DNA from: a virus | Length of the DNA: 46,478 nucleotides | Virus record (IMG/VR): IMGVR_UViG_3300050161_000017 | Coordinates: 1-46,478 of that record | Direction: 5' to 3' (one strand) | Shown here: in pieces, positions 10,117-17,707 of the stretch | How the letters are laid out: each line of letters begins with the position of its first letter | Numbering within the stretch: position 1 is the stretch's first letter | Made by a program: the position numbers and the translations under genes | Notes under the pieces: model-generated | The model's database searches: none | The model's input: the letters and a program-made list of their open reading frames with translations, nothing else | Told to the model about the DNA's origin: nothing

Positions 10117-11268
10117 ATGACTAGGCTACAAGACTTCTTAAACTCCCCTATTCCGGGCTTGAGTCGTATGATGAAAGCACCGAAGCAGGGTGATCTGTTC
10201 GGCATCGAGCTAGAGTGCGAGGGCCGTGACGTAGATTGGGACGGTTCGGACGCCAATCTCGTGAAGGATTGGGCACCACATGCTGACGGCTCTTTGCGAA
10301 ATAACCACGGTTCTTCTTGTGAGTGGGTGTTTAACGGCCCTGCGTCTTATAAGACCTCACTTCTTCGTGTTAAGAAGTTGTTTGAGTATTTTGAGAAGCG
10401 CAAGACAAAACTTGTCTGCTCTAACAGGACTTCTACACACGTCCACTTCAACATGGGTGACAAGAATGCCTATCAGTTGGTGAATATGTTCATTCTGTTC
10501 ACTATTTTGGAAGACCTTCTTGATCGCTATTGTGGAGAAGATCGTCGTGGGAACCTGTTCTGTCTCTCTTCTCGTCACGCAGAAGAGCAAGTATCGTGGA
10601 TCAGCGATGCTGTGTTTAACAGGCAGAACTTCGGAGCATTTCGGGAAGATTTCCGATATTGTTCACTGAACCTTGCTTCGATTAACAAGTTTGGGACGGT
10701 TGAGTTCCGAGCTATGCGTGGTCTGGACACTGAGGAAGCCGTCGTTACTTGGCTGAGTATCATCAAAGAGTTCTGCGAGTATGCTTGCTATACGATGAAG
10801 AACCCCGTTGACTTGATCGAAGCAATCTCTGTCAAGACTCCTCTTGGTTTTGTCAAGGAGGTGTTCTCGAAGGACAACTCCCTGCTTCTCACTAAGGGTA
10901 TTGACGAGCATGACATCAATGCTTCCATTTATGAAGGTCTCCGGCTCGTTCAGATGATGTGCTATCGCATCGGAACCGAGTTCGATCAGGTGCGTCTTAA
11001 GGGCCGTGATTTTTGGGCATCATTCGGGGGTGATCCAGAACCGGAGTTGGACGTCGCTCCAGAACTTCTGGCAGGACTCGGCAACCCAGCCGATGGTAGG
11101 CTTCGCCGTAGGCCTGCAGGACCTCGAATCGCTAATCTTATCGATAACCCGTTAGTTGTGCTTGAGATTAGAGAGAATCAAGCACGGGCAGAGGCAGTTA
11201 TGGCTCGTCGTTATGCAGACCGCATTGCTGCTCGCTTTGAACCTATTCCTGTTGTGGAGGATTTCTGA
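10117..11268 (+). CDS. Amidoligase (Amidoligase_2-like, GS/GCS fold), about 383 aa; an alternative start is at 10081
   Basis: FGIELECEG, STHVHFN and GTVEFRAMRG motifs. The stop overlaps the next ATG (TGATG). Confidence 0.75.
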   Translation: MTRLQDFLNSPIPGLSRMMKAPKQGDLFGIELECEGRDVDWDGSDANLVKDWAPHADGSLRNNHGSSCEWVFNGPASYKTSLLRVKKLFEYFEKRKTKLVCSNRTSTHVHFNMGDKNAYQLVNMFILFTILEDLLDRYCGEDRRGNLFCLSSRHAEEQVSWISDAVFNRQNFGAFREDFRYCSLNLASINKFGTVEFRAMRGLDTEEAVVTWLSIIKEFCEYACYTMKNPVDLIEAISVKTPLGFVKEVFSKDNSLLLTKGIDEHDINASIYEGLRLVQMMCYRIGTEFDQVRLKGRDFWASFGGDPEPELDVAPELLAGLGNPADGRLRRRPAGPRIANLIDNPLVVLEIRENQARAEAVMARRYADRIAARFEPIPVVEDF

Positions 11269-12035
11269 TGACTAAATTTCGTATCTACCCATACAAGCAA
11301 GGCAGCAAGAGTGCTAAGGCTCTTGCAGAAGCTCTTGAAGGAAAGGTTCTAAAGCATGTCGGGAGTAAGTACAAGCCCAGACTTAGTGACGTCGTTGTTA
11401 ATTGGGGTTCTGCTGCTCCTCCTGTTTTGGCCCCCGCCACCACCCTCAACAAGGATGTCGCAATAGCTCAGTGCAAGCTTAAAACTTTCAAGGCTCTTGG
11501 AGCTGCCGGGGTGCGCATTCCTGACTGCTGGGAGGGCCGTGCAGCAGCGGAGAACGCCCCGGCAGAGAGTTACCCTCTAATGTGCCGAACGGTGCTTAGA
11601 GGGCATTCTGGGGCGGGTATTGTGATCGCCAACAACGCTGATGAACTCGTGGAAGCACCTCTTTACACCAAGTACGTCAAGAAGAAGGATGAGTATCGTG
11701 TCCACGTCCTCAAAGACAAAGCCTTTTTCATTCAGCGTAAGGCCCGAAAGCTTGACAACGACAATCCCGACTGGTTGGTACGAAATCTGGCCGGAGGATT
11801 TGTTTTTGTCGAAGCCCCAGCCGACGAAGTCCCGGCTGATGTCATTAATCAGGCAGTGGCCACAGTTGCTGCGCTGGCTATCGACTTCGGAGGAGTGGAC
11901 GTTATCTGGAACGAAAGAGAAGGTAAAGCCTATGTCCTTGAATGCAACACGGCCTGCGGTCTCGAAGACCGAACCGCAGACAAGTATCAGCAAGCGTTTG
12001 TTGATTTTGTCGCGGATCAGGGACGCCAAGACTAG
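11268..12035 (+). CDS. ATP-grasp ligase (RimK-like), 255 aa
   Basis: EYRVHVLKDKAFFIQRK and the C-terminal YVLECNTACGLE, typical of small ATP-grasp peptide ligases. Confidence 0.75.
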   Translation: MTKFRIYPYKQGSKSAKALAEALEGKVLKHVGSKYKPRLSDVVVNWGSAAPPVLAPATTLNKDVAIAQCKLKTFKALGAAGVRIPDCWEGRAAAENAPAESYPLMCRTVLRGHSGAGIVIANNADELVEAPLYTKYVKKKDEYRVHVLKDKAFFIQRKARKLDNDNPDWLVRNLAGGFVFVEAPADEVPADVINQAVATVAALAIDFGGVDVIWNEREGKAYVLECNTACGLEDRTADKYQQAFVDFVADQGRQD

Positions 12036-12225
12036 GCGTTACCTTGAAATAGATGACACCTGGAATAAAGGGTGCATTTTCTACGATGAAAAGCAGGCTC
12101 AGAGGGAATATTCTTGGCTGAAAGCCCACAGCGATGTTAGAGAATACATCCTCGTAGCTCAAGTAGTTAAACAAAAACCAAAGATCAGTTGTTTTGATGA
12201 TTTAGACGACACCATACCATTCTAA
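12007..12225 (+). CDS. Possible small protein ending in the SSB-like tail FDDLDDTIPF; start unresolved (TTG at 11998, 12001 or 12007, all overlapping the ATP-grasp gene)
   Basis: The frame is open from 11641. There is no ATG, GTG or TTG in frame between 12036 and 12225. The C-terminus mimics the SSB tip. Confidence 0.35.
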   Translation: MSRIRDAKTRRYLEIDDTWNKGCIFYDEKQAQREYSWLKAHSDVREYILVAQVVKQKPKISCFDDLDDTIPF

Positions 12226-12237
12226 GAGGAAGTTATC

Positions 12238-12459
12238 ATGTACGCAGTTTCGTTTAGAATACCTTATGAAGTTCTTGGGCAGAGAGCTTACGTCAATGGT
12301 TCTTTGATTAATACGACCCCTCTCAAGAAGGGTCAGTTGATTGCTGTGATTAACAAATCTCAGTCTCCTGTTGTTAAAGGATTGACGGCAGAGGTTATTG
12401 AAAGTAATAAGACTACGCGCAGTGCTTCTGAGTTCAGATGGGGCTTGTTTGATGAGTGA
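12238..12459 (+). CDS. Hypothetical protein (73 aa)
   Basis: ATG after agaggaag. Confidence 0.6.
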   Translation: MYAVSFRIPYEVLGQRAYVNGSLINTTPLKKGQLIAVINKSQSPVVKGLTAEVIESNKTTRSASEFRWGLFDE

Positions 12460-12646
12460 CCCTCATAGTGCATTAGCCGAGAAACTGTACGGCGAGATAA
12501 CCCCGACTGGAAGGATTAAAGCCAAGACAATCAACTACATGCGGTTGTACGACAGTGGGGAAATCAAAGTCGGCCAAGTGGCGGGCCAGTATCCTGCTAC
12601 AGATTTGTCAAGCCTTGAATTAAGAGTCCTTGCATTATTTGCTTGA
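12452..12646 (+). CDS. 64-aa ORF resembling the family A DNA polymerase fingers segment (motif B / O-helix)
   Basis: ATGAGTGA overlap with the upstream gene. Its SDPHSALAEKLYGEITPTGRIKAKTINYMRLYDSGEIKVGQV aligns by eye with GDPHQYNADLAGVTRVRAKTLLYAIQYGAQAGKVAQI in this phage's DNA polymerase. Confidence 0.5.
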   Translation: MSDPHSALAEKLYGEITPTGRIKAKTINYMRLYDSGEIKVGQVAGQYPATDLSSLELRVLALFA

Positions 12647-12670
12647 CAAATCTGAAAAACCCTGTATAAT
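12643..12670 (+). promoter_or_regulatory. Strong sigma70-type promoter P5 (TTGACA, 16-nt spacer, TATAAT), a near-copy of P4
   Basis: TTGACA at 12643-12648 and TATAAT at 12665-12670. It carries the same conserved leader ATCCTAAAGGAGCGAGGGTGAAAAG. Confidence 0.7.
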
Positions 12671-12733
12671 ATCCTAAAGGAGCGAGGGTGAAAAGCTCCT
12701 CCCTAGAACATGAAAGAGAAGGAGAGAAATCCT

Positions 12734-15515: not shown

Positions 15516-17318
15516 ATTTATCTTGATTGGGAAACGCAGGCCCAAGACGTTTACGCAGTGGACATCGAAACCGATGGTCTTGATGCAAAGACAATCTGGG
15601 TAATGTGTTGGGAAAATATCAAAACCAAAGAGACGGGGACGTGTACCACTTATGCCGAGATTAGACGATTTTTCGATGAGACTGCTGGTTCTGTTTATGT
15701 CGGCCACAATATCATCCGCTTTGATGCTCCCGTTCTTAACCGATTGGCAGGCACCAAGCTCTCTGTAAGCCAGATCATTGACACCCTTATCCTTACCACT
15801 CTCTACAGCCCGTCGATTAAAGACGGCCACTCTCTCGACGCATGGGGTACTCGGATTGGCCTTCCAAAAGGCGTATTCAATGACTGGACGCACCTCTCTG
15901 ACGAGATGATTGTGTACTGCCAACAAGATGTTTCCATCACCGCCTCACTCTTTAGGAAGATCACCAAAGTCTTGACGAAGATTGGTTTCAGCGAGAAGAC
16001 TTGTTACATCCAACACTACATCACAGCTATTGCAAGCAGACAGCAGAATAGTGGGTTCAAGTTCGATGGCCCTCGTGCTATCCTATTTTATCAACAACTT
16101 CGCAATCGTGAAGAAGAACTACAGGAGTTGATCCGTCATGCGTTTCCCGACGAGCGACGACTTGTGCGTGAACGGAATATACACACCAAGTCTGGACAAG
16201 TTACTGCACTGTATGAACGAGATCGACAGACTTACGACATCGAGATCGTGCCCAATAACAGAGGGACATATAGAGCGTTTGAGAACGTCCCTTTCAATAT
16301 TGGAAGCTCAAAGCAGAGAGTTGAAAAACTTACTGCGCTCGGATGGGTGGCTGATGAAAAGACTCCGAAAGGCTTCCCTAAACCAACAGAAAAGTCTCTG
16401 ATTAGGTTTGCAGAAGAGAGTGGTATCGAAGAAGTAGCTTTGATTACTAAGTGGATGTCTGTCAACGGACGGGCAAACATGATTAACAATTGGTTGGAGA
16501 ACTGGGATGAAGCGACCGGCTGTATTCACGGTAAGTTATTTGTTGCGGACACTCTTCGTTTCCGGCATCAAGCACCTAACACAGCTAACATCCCAGCCGT
16601 TAGAGTTGATAAAAGAGGACTTGTCCTTCTGGGAGAAGAGGGATATTATACTTATGAAGCTAGAGATTTGTGGACCGCAAGGCCGGGTCGTGTACTCATC
16701 GGAACTGATGCGGCAGGGCTTGAACTTAGAATGCTTGCCCACTATCTCAACCGCCCTGAGTTCACAGAACAGGTAGTCAATGGTGATCCTCACCAGTACA
16801 ATGCGGACTTGGCTGGTGTTACTAGGGTAAGGGCCAAGACCTTACTCTATGCCATTCAATACGGTGCTCAAGCCGGTAAGGTTGCCCAGATCATTGAAGG
16901 AACTCGTGAAGAGGGTGCGATGATGAGAGAGCAGTTCCTAGCTAGACTGGGTATCAAAGGAGTCATGGAAGATGCAATGCGTGAGCAAGAATCGGGCAGG
17001 GTCTGGTTGGTGGACGGGGCTGGAGTGGTTTGCCCCTCTCCGCACGCCGCACTCAACTACAAGCTTCAAGGTGGTGGTGCCCGAGTCATGGGCTTAGCTT
17101 GGATCTTGTTAGAGAAAGAGATTAGACGAAAAGGTCTCGATAGTTTCTCCGTAGGCAACATCCATGATGAAATGCAGTACGACGTAGCTCCGGGAGATGC
17201 TGAAGAGCATGGCAGGATAGCAGTTCAAGCTATTCGAGATGCCGGAGAAGAACTGAATCTGAATGTACCGCTAGATGGTACTTCTAAATCTGGCCTTACA
17301 TGGAGTGAAACTCATTGA
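15516..17318 (+). CDS. Family A DNA polymerase with 3'-5' exonuclease domain; the start is either ATT 15516 (proposed) or GTG 15558 (tracked)
   Basis: Exo I VDIETDGL, Exo II GHNIIRFD, Exo III YCQQDV. Motif A GTDAAGLELRMLAH, motif B RAKTLLYAIQYG, motif C NIHDEMQYD. Confidence 0.9.
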   Translation: MYLDWETQAQDVYAVDIETDGLDAKTIWVMCWENIKTKETGTCTTYAEIRRFFDETAGSVYVGHNIIRFDAPVLNRLAGTKLSVSQIIDTLILTTLYSPSIKDGHSLDAWGTRIGLPKGVFNDWTHLSDEMIVYCQQDVSITASLFRKITKVLTKIGFSEKTCYIQHYITAIASRQQNSGFKFDGPRAILFYQQLRNREEELQELIRHAFPDERRLVRERNIHTKSGQVTALYERDRQTYDIEIVPNNRGTYRAFENVPFNIGSSKQRVEKLTALGWVADEKTPKGFPKPTEKSLIRFAEESGIEEVALITKWMSVNGRANMINNWLENWDEATGCIHGKLFVADTLRFRHQAPNTANIPAVRVDKRGLVLLGEEGYYTYEARDLWTARPGRVLIGTDAAGLELRMLAHYLNRPEFTEQVVNGDPHQYNADLAGVTRVRAKTLLYAIQYGAQAGKVAQIIEGTREEGAMMREQFLARLGIKGVMEDAMREQESGRVWLVDGAGVVCPSPHAALNYKLQGGGARVMGLAWILLEKEIRRKGLDSFSVGNIHDEMQYDVAPGDAEEHGRIAVQAIRDAGEELNLNVPLDGTSKSGLTWSETH

Positions 17319-17320
17319 AG

Positions 17321-17707
17321 ATGTTCCGAGAAGACAGAGATCACAGAAACAAACGTACAAGAGATTGGCACCGCAATAATCCTAAGCAAAGCTATTTGTT
17401 AGCTGCTAAGAAAAGAGCAGCAACTGCTGGCCTACCTTTTGACTTAACTGAAGAGGACATTATTTTCCCCGAAGTGTGTCCTGCCTTAGGCATCCCTGTT
17501 GCTTTAGAACAAATAGATGGACCTAGGCGACGAACAGATAATACACCTTCGCTAGACAGGATAATCCCTGAATTAGGTTATGTTAAAGGGAACGTAGCGA
17601 TGATCTCTTGGAGAGCTAACCGGCTTAAAAGCGATGCGAAATTGTTTGAACTTGAAAAACTCCTAGCTTATATGAAAGACCGTAAAATGAAAGCGTGGGT
17701 ATTGTAA
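17321..17707 (+). CDS. HNH endonuclease (128 aa)
   Basis: SLDRIIPELGYVKGNVAMISWRANRLK, a typical HNH/HNN core. Confidence 0.75.
   Translation: MFREDRDHRNKRTRDWHRNNPKQSYLLAAKKRAATAGLPFDLTEEDIIFPEVCPALGIPVALEQIDGPRRRTDNTPSLDRIIPELGYVKGNVAMISWRANRLKSDAKLFELEKLLAYMKDRKMKAWVL

Follow-up and report, generated by a model that had tools for sequence, protein, structure and literature searches.

The window analysed here, a complete 46,478-bp virus record with direct terminal repeats, carries at positions 12452..12646 of the plus strand a gene of 64 codons plus TGA (P0001) whose predicted product is a free-standing piece of the fingers of bacterial-type DNA polymerase I (Pol I), with the polymerase motifs in the order B then A. 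This mini-protein is selectively maintained, belongs to an apparently undescribed family of small proteins, and is patchily distributed among related phages. We tentatively propose, with a probability of roughly 0.45, that it presents the surface with which Pol I binds dNTP/triphosphate, whether to hold a ligand or to act as a decoy, in host takeover or counter-defence. A preliminary description of the window had quoted the same 64-aa ORF, which translation confirmed, and had likened it to the fingers O-helix; that description was largely borne out, but it lacked the C-terminal motif A and hence the permuted order, the family, and the patchy distribution.

The DNA of the window is only distantly related to that of Vibrio and Photobacterium podophages that share its ATP-grasp gene. 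As Vibrio is infected by the closest isolated phages, the host is probably a marine gammaproteobacterium. Three homologues of P0001 with 73–75% identity were found in a collection of 5.8 billion proteins and correspond to the same locus in Logan contigs L002–L005, and a fourth (P0006; 64% identity by tblastn) lies in contig L006. The orthologues in L002, L004, L005, and L006 (64–75% identity) are syntenic with the window gene, and the frame is intact in all five loci. When the genes were aligned by codon, the differences at codon positions 1/2/3 were 14/12/33 between the window and L005 and 2/2/19 between L002 and L005. The dN/dS ratio across the window and its four syntenic relatives was 0.02–0.075 (Nei–Gojobori), with synonymous sites near saturation between the window and the other loci (pS 0.74–0.91). 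This pattern of substitution indicates that the mini gene is a real, translated gene under strong purifying selection. It occurs once in the window genome, and its ATG overlaps the stop codon of an upstream 73-aa ORF (ATGAGTGA). Its codon index (0.581) is an outlier compared with 64-codon windows of the large genes (0.738 +/- 0.048) and is comparably low to that of a mobile HNH gene (0.607). A pseudogene or decaying remnant was rejected on the basis of the dN/dS values and the intact frame in five loci. The preliminary description offered two origins: a leftover of a polymerase that was displaced or foreign, or a mini-protein that has been retained. Purifying selection and the existence of similar small proteins show the latter to be right; of the former, the decaying remnant falls away, and a foreign origin stands, insofar as the resident polymerase is a much more distant match to the sequence than bacterial-type Pol I is.

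Residues 3–45 of the mini-protein (the B module; 12458..12586, plus strand) correspond to helices N, O, and O1 of the family A polymerase (Pol A) fingers, that is, to the region of motif B, according to PF00476, the HMM alignment with Klenow, and an AF2 model. P0001 alone matched PF00476 with an E-value of 1.2e-3, residues 3–41 falling on profile positions 185–227 (the motif B region), and matched PHROG 17 with 1.5e-4. Its relatives matched the same PF00476 positions with E-values of 8e-6 to 3e-4, and PF00476 was matched by 23 of 24 family members, the best at 6e-11. A family profile built from these 24 small proteins (alignment A2) identified full-length bacterial Pol I in a database of 5.8 billion sequences (E 2.4e-9) and aligned with bacterial Pol I at 1.4e-12 in hhalign. 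The same profile matched Klenow at 1.7e-9, followed by Bst and Taq, and T7 polymerase was absent from its PDB matches at E 0.01 or better. The motif B likeness first noticed by eye is therefore statistically real (1.2e-3 for P0001 against PF00476 and 1.4e-12 for the family profile against Pol I). P0001 is a homologue of the Pol A fingers (N–O–O1), with significant sequence similarity and the same local fold, but not a family A polymerase as a whole domain, since it scored 18.3 bits against the PF00476 curated cut-off of 34.3 and covered only positions 185–227 of 381.

In the HMM alignment, H5, R21, K25, Y29, and Y33 of P0001 align with H734, R754, K758, F762, and Y766 of Klenow, the numbering of which was checked against the chain numbering. 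These Klenow residues have a dNTP-binding role: in the Taq and T7 ternary complexes, the His of helix N and the Arg and Lys of helix O contact the triphosphate. The two aromatics of helix O stack on the incoming base and on the template. Across the 24 members, which share 33–75% identity, H5, A9, and K25 are invariant, D3, L12, G14, A24, N28, and P48 are nearly invariant, and most members retain R21, Y29, and Y33. A review (PMC10520511) covers what the O-helix, F710, Y714, and the steric-gate Glu do.

The AF2 model of P0001, which was built from the family alignment and may lean on memorised polymerase structures, had a pLDDT of 90.5 and contained helices at residues 4–13, 18–32, 37–44, and 55–63. 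Model residues 1–49 superposed on Klenow 730–782, Taq 635–687, and Bst 678–730 at 1.3–2.8 A. The leading Foldseek, VIA-align, and Atlas matches were all family A polymerase fingers (47–49 residues, 1.1–2.8 A), with VIA Z values of up to 6.0, modest because the segment is short, so the earlier term "O-helix mimic" is fair as a description of the sequence and the predicted fold. The motif A helix was not sequentially aligned, as expected for a permuted element. A homodimer prediction gave a score of 0.01, which counts neither for nor against self-association.

The C-terminal residues 49–63 (ATDLSSLELRVLALF; the A module, 12596..12640, plus strand) correspond to motif A of Pol A, which here comes after motif B. 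This assignment was obtained with BLASTP, a module profile, and a pattern. BLASTP of P0001 against the resident polymerase placed residues 49–63 (TDLSSLELRVLALF) on GTDAAGLELRMLAHY, the motif A of that enzyme, and did not recover the motif B alignment. When an A-module profile made from 13 small proteins was run against a 947-aa Pol I, motif A was the one best-scoring site (E 0.008), 12 residues ahead of that protein's own motif B match, and in the resident polymerase, too, the best-scoring site was motif A (E 0.016). The motif-A pattern occurred in 13 small proteins and in 15 of 18 Pol I sequences, and the six-frame translations of the window and the loci (255,378 residues) contained it nowhere else. 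The motif A piece alone, which is too short for such a search, gave no match in Pfam. When P0001 was rotated so that its C-terminal 18 residues came first, the Pfam alignment spanned profile positions 157–227, including motif A, but the score was not raised (18.9 and 25.4 bits), a result that is suggestive and not decisive. Motif B (aa 21–34) thus precedes motif A (aa 51–61), in a departure from the A–B–C order; motif C (HDE) is absent, the protein ending at residue 64. Given this order of motifs, the mini-protein is, at the level of sequence, a circular permutation of a Pol I segment.

Both the order and the complement of modules vary in the family. The longer proteins P0010 and P0028 contain B, then TGRxxSxPxMQ, then A; in Pol I, the TGRxxSxPxMQ motif lies ahead of motif A. 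The natural order is seen in P0017 (TGR, A, B) and in P0018 (A, B), in which the motif A Asp is replaced by N, and many members contain only B and end in GxYPLKG. The Asp, Glu, and Arg of motif A are kept in the subfamily of P0001. Because the Asp is not present in every member and B-only forms exist, a full metal and dNTP site is not a family-wide property. The permuted forms may have arisen by tandem duplication of a TGR–A–B segment followed by trimming.

The resident family A DNA polymerase (15516..17318, plus strand; assigned from Pfam and the start of a relative) served as the comparison partner and is not the source of the mini gene. It is complete, as had been described, covering PF00476 positions 22–381 of 381 (E 5e-29) and possessing motifs A, B, and C. 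The alignment of the mini-protein with this polymerase that had been drawn by eye falls where it was placed (residues 423–456, about 16782–16883) but is weak: the family profile reached only E 3.6e-3 in hhalign and 7–9 bits in hmmsearch on this polymerase and its relatives. No similarity between the mini gene and the polymerase gene was detected with blastn, and the codon-aligned identities were 21/42 in motif B and 27/42 in motif A, so the earlier statements that the nucleotide sequences are dissimilar and that the gene is not a recent internal duplication both hold, the weak profile score pointing the same way. A copy of the resident polymerase was rejected as a candidate on the same blastn and E 3.6e-3 results. 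The weak profile score, the absence of T7 polymerase from the matches, and the lack of nucleotide similarity together indicate that the mini-protein is derived from a bacterial-type Pol I sequence and not from the polymerase 3 kb downstream. The idea that it is one part of a split polymerase was also rejected, given that the resident enzyme has its own motifs A, B, and C and the mini gene is present in one copy. The 3-kb proximity of the two genes appears to be incidental, since the mini gene is missing from close relatives whose polymerase is almost the same.

Two observations concern the polymerase gene itself. P0067, a 599-aa polymerase with 85% identity to that of the window, starts MYLDWETQ... 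where the window reads ATT (IYLDWETQ...) at 15516, which places the N-terminus at 15516 and not at the GTG at 15558, with either an ATT start or a start-codon variant. Directly after the polymerase gene, at 17315–17707, lies an HNH-like ORF of low codon adaptation (0.607). Its homologues occur at shifting positions in other contigs (L002 11861–12169, immediately upstream of the polymerase; L004 4305–4577, minus strand; and L013 9381–9521), as would be expected of a free-standing homing endonuclease that is mobile in the vicinity of the polymerase gene.

An exhaustive profile search of 1.84 billion cluster representatives yielded 35 matches at E 1e-3 or better, of which about 30 were proteins of 48–162 residues with the architectures B only, B–A, B–TGR–A, natural A–B, and natural TGR–A–B. 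P0009 (619 aa, 11 repeats) was set aside as a spurious, repeat-driven match, and other long multi-stretch matches were also left out of the family. The ESM Atlas clusters contain 59–109 such small proteins, automatically named as polymerase family, of which 10–25% reach PF00476. The mini-protein has a conserved tail of its own, GE[IV]xxG[RK]xxGxYP. There is no model for these mini-proteins in Pfam or PHROGs, and no description of them was found in the open-access literature searched. Family A polymerases rank with the most thoroughly studied enzymes, yet a recent reclassification of them dropped sequences of fewer than 350 residues (PMC10201439), and a family of free fingertips would go unnoticed in surveys that discard sequences below about this length. 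Among 50,697 isolated phage genomes (INPHARED), tblastn with P0001 and P0011 revealed no clear member of the family, and peptide-pattern searches found no relatives in IMG/VR, GTDB genomes, or JGI metagenome contigs. The mini-proteins therefore appear to constitute an unnamed, undescribed family; the permuted, stand-alone architecture is what appears new, the module being well known. In Yersinia phage PYps3T, an 81-aa ORF overlapping the polymerase stop (gp46; L009 6992–7237) resembled residues 30–63 of the mini-protein with a tblastn E-value of 0.02, a likeness that was unconfirmed by hhalign (probability 5.7%).

The mini gene lies at the end of a cassette of amidoligase genes. The last enzyme of this cassette is an R2K/RimK-like ATP-grasp ligase (11268..12035, plus strand), assigned by synteny and by Pfam matches to ATP-grasp_3 and R2K_2, both of which are under the curated cut-offs. 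The 73-aa ORF (12238..12459, plus strand), identified by ORF reading and by a homologue with 43% identity in L016, comes next, its stop overlapping the mini gene start by 8 nt. A small inserted ORF separates the ATP-grasp and mini genes in the window, L002, and L004; in L005 and L006, the 73-aa ORF is absent, and the mini gene directly follows the ATP-grasp gene, with stop and start overlapping. Each of the five loci in the window's clade has the ATP-grasp gene ahead of the mini gene, but as these represent one lineage, this synteny is not independent evidence. Downstream, a sigma-70 promoter (12643..12670, plus strand; TTGACA, 16 nt, TATAAT) matches the consensus at 12 of 12 positions, and its -35 hexamer takes in the TGA of the mini gene. 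The sequence TTGACAA[AG]TCTG...TATAAT is conserved in L002, L004, L005, L006, L013, L015, and L016, and the -35 hexamer overlaps the stop of the preceding gene each time, whether this is the mini gene (five loci) or the homologue of the 73-aa ORF (L016, 2687–2908). With its TGA inside the -35 hexamer, the mini gene closes the amidoligase-cassette operon directly before the promoter of the replication module.

Relatives of the polymerase number in the thousands, and the three with long contigs that were examined all have the same cassette and promoter and lack the mini gene: L013 (polymerase 85% and primase–helicase 92% identical to those of the window), L015 (77% and 88%), and L016 (73% and 84%). 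In contrast, the more distant L002 (66% and 70.5%), also with the same cassette and promoter, has a mini-protein with 74% identity to that of the window, although its ATP-grasp protein is only 59% identical; where present, the mini gene is thus better conserved than its neighbours. Its absence from closer relatives and presence in L002 show a patchy distribution and imply that it is dispensable for both the replisome and the cassette. The mini gene is therefore accessory. The small ORFs that occupy the space from the ATP-grasp gene to the promoter differ from one relative to the next. The distant family members (L007, L008, and L010–L012) lie in dense arrays of small phage genes and have no shared neighbour. 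Neither a polymerase nor an amidoligase cassette was in view on their contigs, which are short, so linked partners may be located farther off. An obligate linkage to the ATP-grasp ligase was not observed, the cassette occurring without the gene (L013, L015, and L016) and the family without the cassette. In L013, an 89-aa ORF at 2412–2681 has its own ATG, ends in DLDDDIPF, and is homologous to the window frame at 11998–12225, which ends in FDDLDDTIPF; given this ATG, the SSB-tip-like ORF of the window is probably a real gene.

As motif C, the palm, and the thumb are absent, the mini-protein cannot polymerise. Selection on the dNTP face across 33–75% identity, together with patchy, accessory behaviour, suggests that this face is used on its own. 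In the reading that we tentatively prefer, the mini-protein would be expressed from the operon that ends just ahead of the replication-module promoter and would act alone, early in infection, presenting the nucleotide-binding face of Pol I. It may bind a nucleotide-like ligand (a triphosphate, pyrophosphate, or a signalling nucleotide), or it may, as a decoy, occupy a host factor that recognises the active-site face of Pol I; its role would then be in host takeover or counter-defence, as is typical of patchy small phage genes. This mechanism is read from conserved residues, and the same residues could serve folding or protein docking. A broader version, which we regard as fairly unlikely, is that phages have repeatedly reduced and permuted the Pol I fingertip into a free nucleotide sponge or active-site decoy of 50–140 residues that counters nucleotide-triphosphate-based or Pol A-sensing defence.

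The mini-protein might instead interfere with host Pol I or a Pol I-dependent process, as dominant-negative fingers docking on the palm or on the DNA substrate. Phage polymerases are far less similar to the family than bacterial Pol I is, the family's motif A, D[YF]SxLELRVLA, hardly differs from DYSQIELRVLA, the consensus in Pol I, and the phage of the window has a polymerase of its own and could spare Pol I. Even so, we consider such interference unlikely, because a free 64-aa fragment must compete with the tethered fingers of the enzyme, and because the contigs L007, L008, and L010–L012 have no phage polymerase in view and their phages may need host replication. The position of the mini gene just upstream of the replication module, and the weakly similar ORF after the polymerase gene of PYps3T (tblastn E 0.02), would fit an accessory factor or regulator of the phage replisome, acting on the polymerase or the primase–helicase. 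We find this improbable: relatives with polymerase and primase–helicase identities of 85% and 92% lack the gene, the resident polymerase gives next to no score with the family profile, the PYps3T likeness is unconfirmed (hhalign probability 5.7%), and the gene would be transcribed with the upstream cassette and not from the replication promoter.

The cassette itself suggests a further role, as a substrate, specificity adaptor, or immunity partner of the RimK/R2K-type ATP-grasp ligase and amidoligases, given that the mini gene comes after the ATP-grasp gene in five of five clade loci, directly and with overlap in L005 and L006. The single lineage behind these loci weakens the argument, L013, L015, and L016 have the cassette without the mini gene, and the distant members have no cassette nearby. 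Moreover, the mini-protein ends in LALFA or LALFS, and the known RimK substrate has an acidic C-terminus, so we find this connection equally improbable. Least of all do the data fit a neutral remnant left by a polymerase since displaced, or a duplicate that arose within the genome from the resident one. The sequence is indeed polymerase-derived, and the polymerase gene in this phage group is flanked by mobile HNH genes, but the dN/dS of 0.02–0.075, the intact frame in five loci, conservation exceeding that of the neighbours, the lack of nucleotide likeness to the resident polymerase, and a wide family of stand-alone proteins make this very improbable, and the saturated synonymous sites (pS 0.74–0.91) argue against recent recombinant copies.

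Compared with the bacterial Pol I enzymes (Klenow, Taq, and Bst; PF00476), the mini-protein is like their fingers and motif A in homologous sequence and predicted local fold, sharing the residues equivalent to H734, R754, K758, F/Y762, and Y766 and, in motif A, D705, E710, and R712. It differs from them in having 64 residues, with no motif C, palm sheet, thumb, or exonuclease, in carrying motif A after motif B, in an FG...VT loop that is 4–5 residues shorter, in its own conserved tail, and in scoring under the Pfam cut-off. Split polymerases of phages, such as the family A polymerase of T7-like cyanophages, which is divided into exo and pol parts (PMC10201439), offer a parallel in that a separately translated ORF carries polymerase A motifs, and HNH genes lie beside the polymerase here. 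Unlike these, the mini-protein is permuted, is not derived from the resident polymerase, and is dispensed with by close relatives; the resident polymerase being complete, there is nothing for it to complement. DNA polymerase swapping in Caudoviricetes has been described (PMC11348598), and a term search of that study turned up no retained polymerase mini-fragments. The mini gene resembles the leftovers of such swaps in being polymerase-related and foreign to the resident polymerase, but it is selected and not decaying. Small phage proteins that act by mimicry or sequestration include the DNA mimic Ocr (PMC7261183) and nucleotide "sponge" proteins (PMC13728456). Like them, the mini-protein is small, patchy, situated among small phage genes, and strongly conserved where present, and it would display a host macromolecule surface; the analogy is functional only, since it has no sequence or fold relationship to them.

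The mini-proteins have kept the nucleotide-gripping residues and lost everything that catalysis needs, and both motif orders occur, so the family represents a natural experiment in circular permutation and domain reduction. If they are nucleotide binders or decoys, they would be a new kind of small phage effector, and protein engineering might profit from them as minimal, foldable modules that bind dNTPs; the sponge or decoy reading, if true, would add a counter-defence class exapted from a replication enzyme. If host Pol I is poisoned, this would be a new mechanism of host takeover. For annotation, such ORFs should be labelled neither "DNA polymerase" nor pseudogene.

The 3' end of the mini gene also carries features at the nucleic acid level. 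A blastn self-match revealed a perfect 14-bp inverted repeat running from the motif A codons to the -35 hexamer (12600..12654, plus strand; arms 12600–12613 and 12641–12654). As RNA, it would form a hairpin of -23 kcal/mol (z -5.7), the second arm of which contains the -35 TTGACA. The hairpin is specific to the window genome, not being formed in L002, L004, L005, or L006, and could be an operon-end hairpin or an operator. A cause of the conserved C-terminus at the DNA or RNA level, such as an UP element or a hairpin, was rejected because the synonymous sites vary; it is also opposed by the genome-specific occurrence of the hairpin and by the recurrence of motif A in unrelated contexts. Past the promoter, a second hairpin lies in the 5' leader at 12679–12699, in which GGAGC (12679–12683, part of AAGGAG) pairs with GCTCC (12695–12699); similar sequence is present in L002 and L005, and the structure may mask a Shine–Dalgarno-like sequence.
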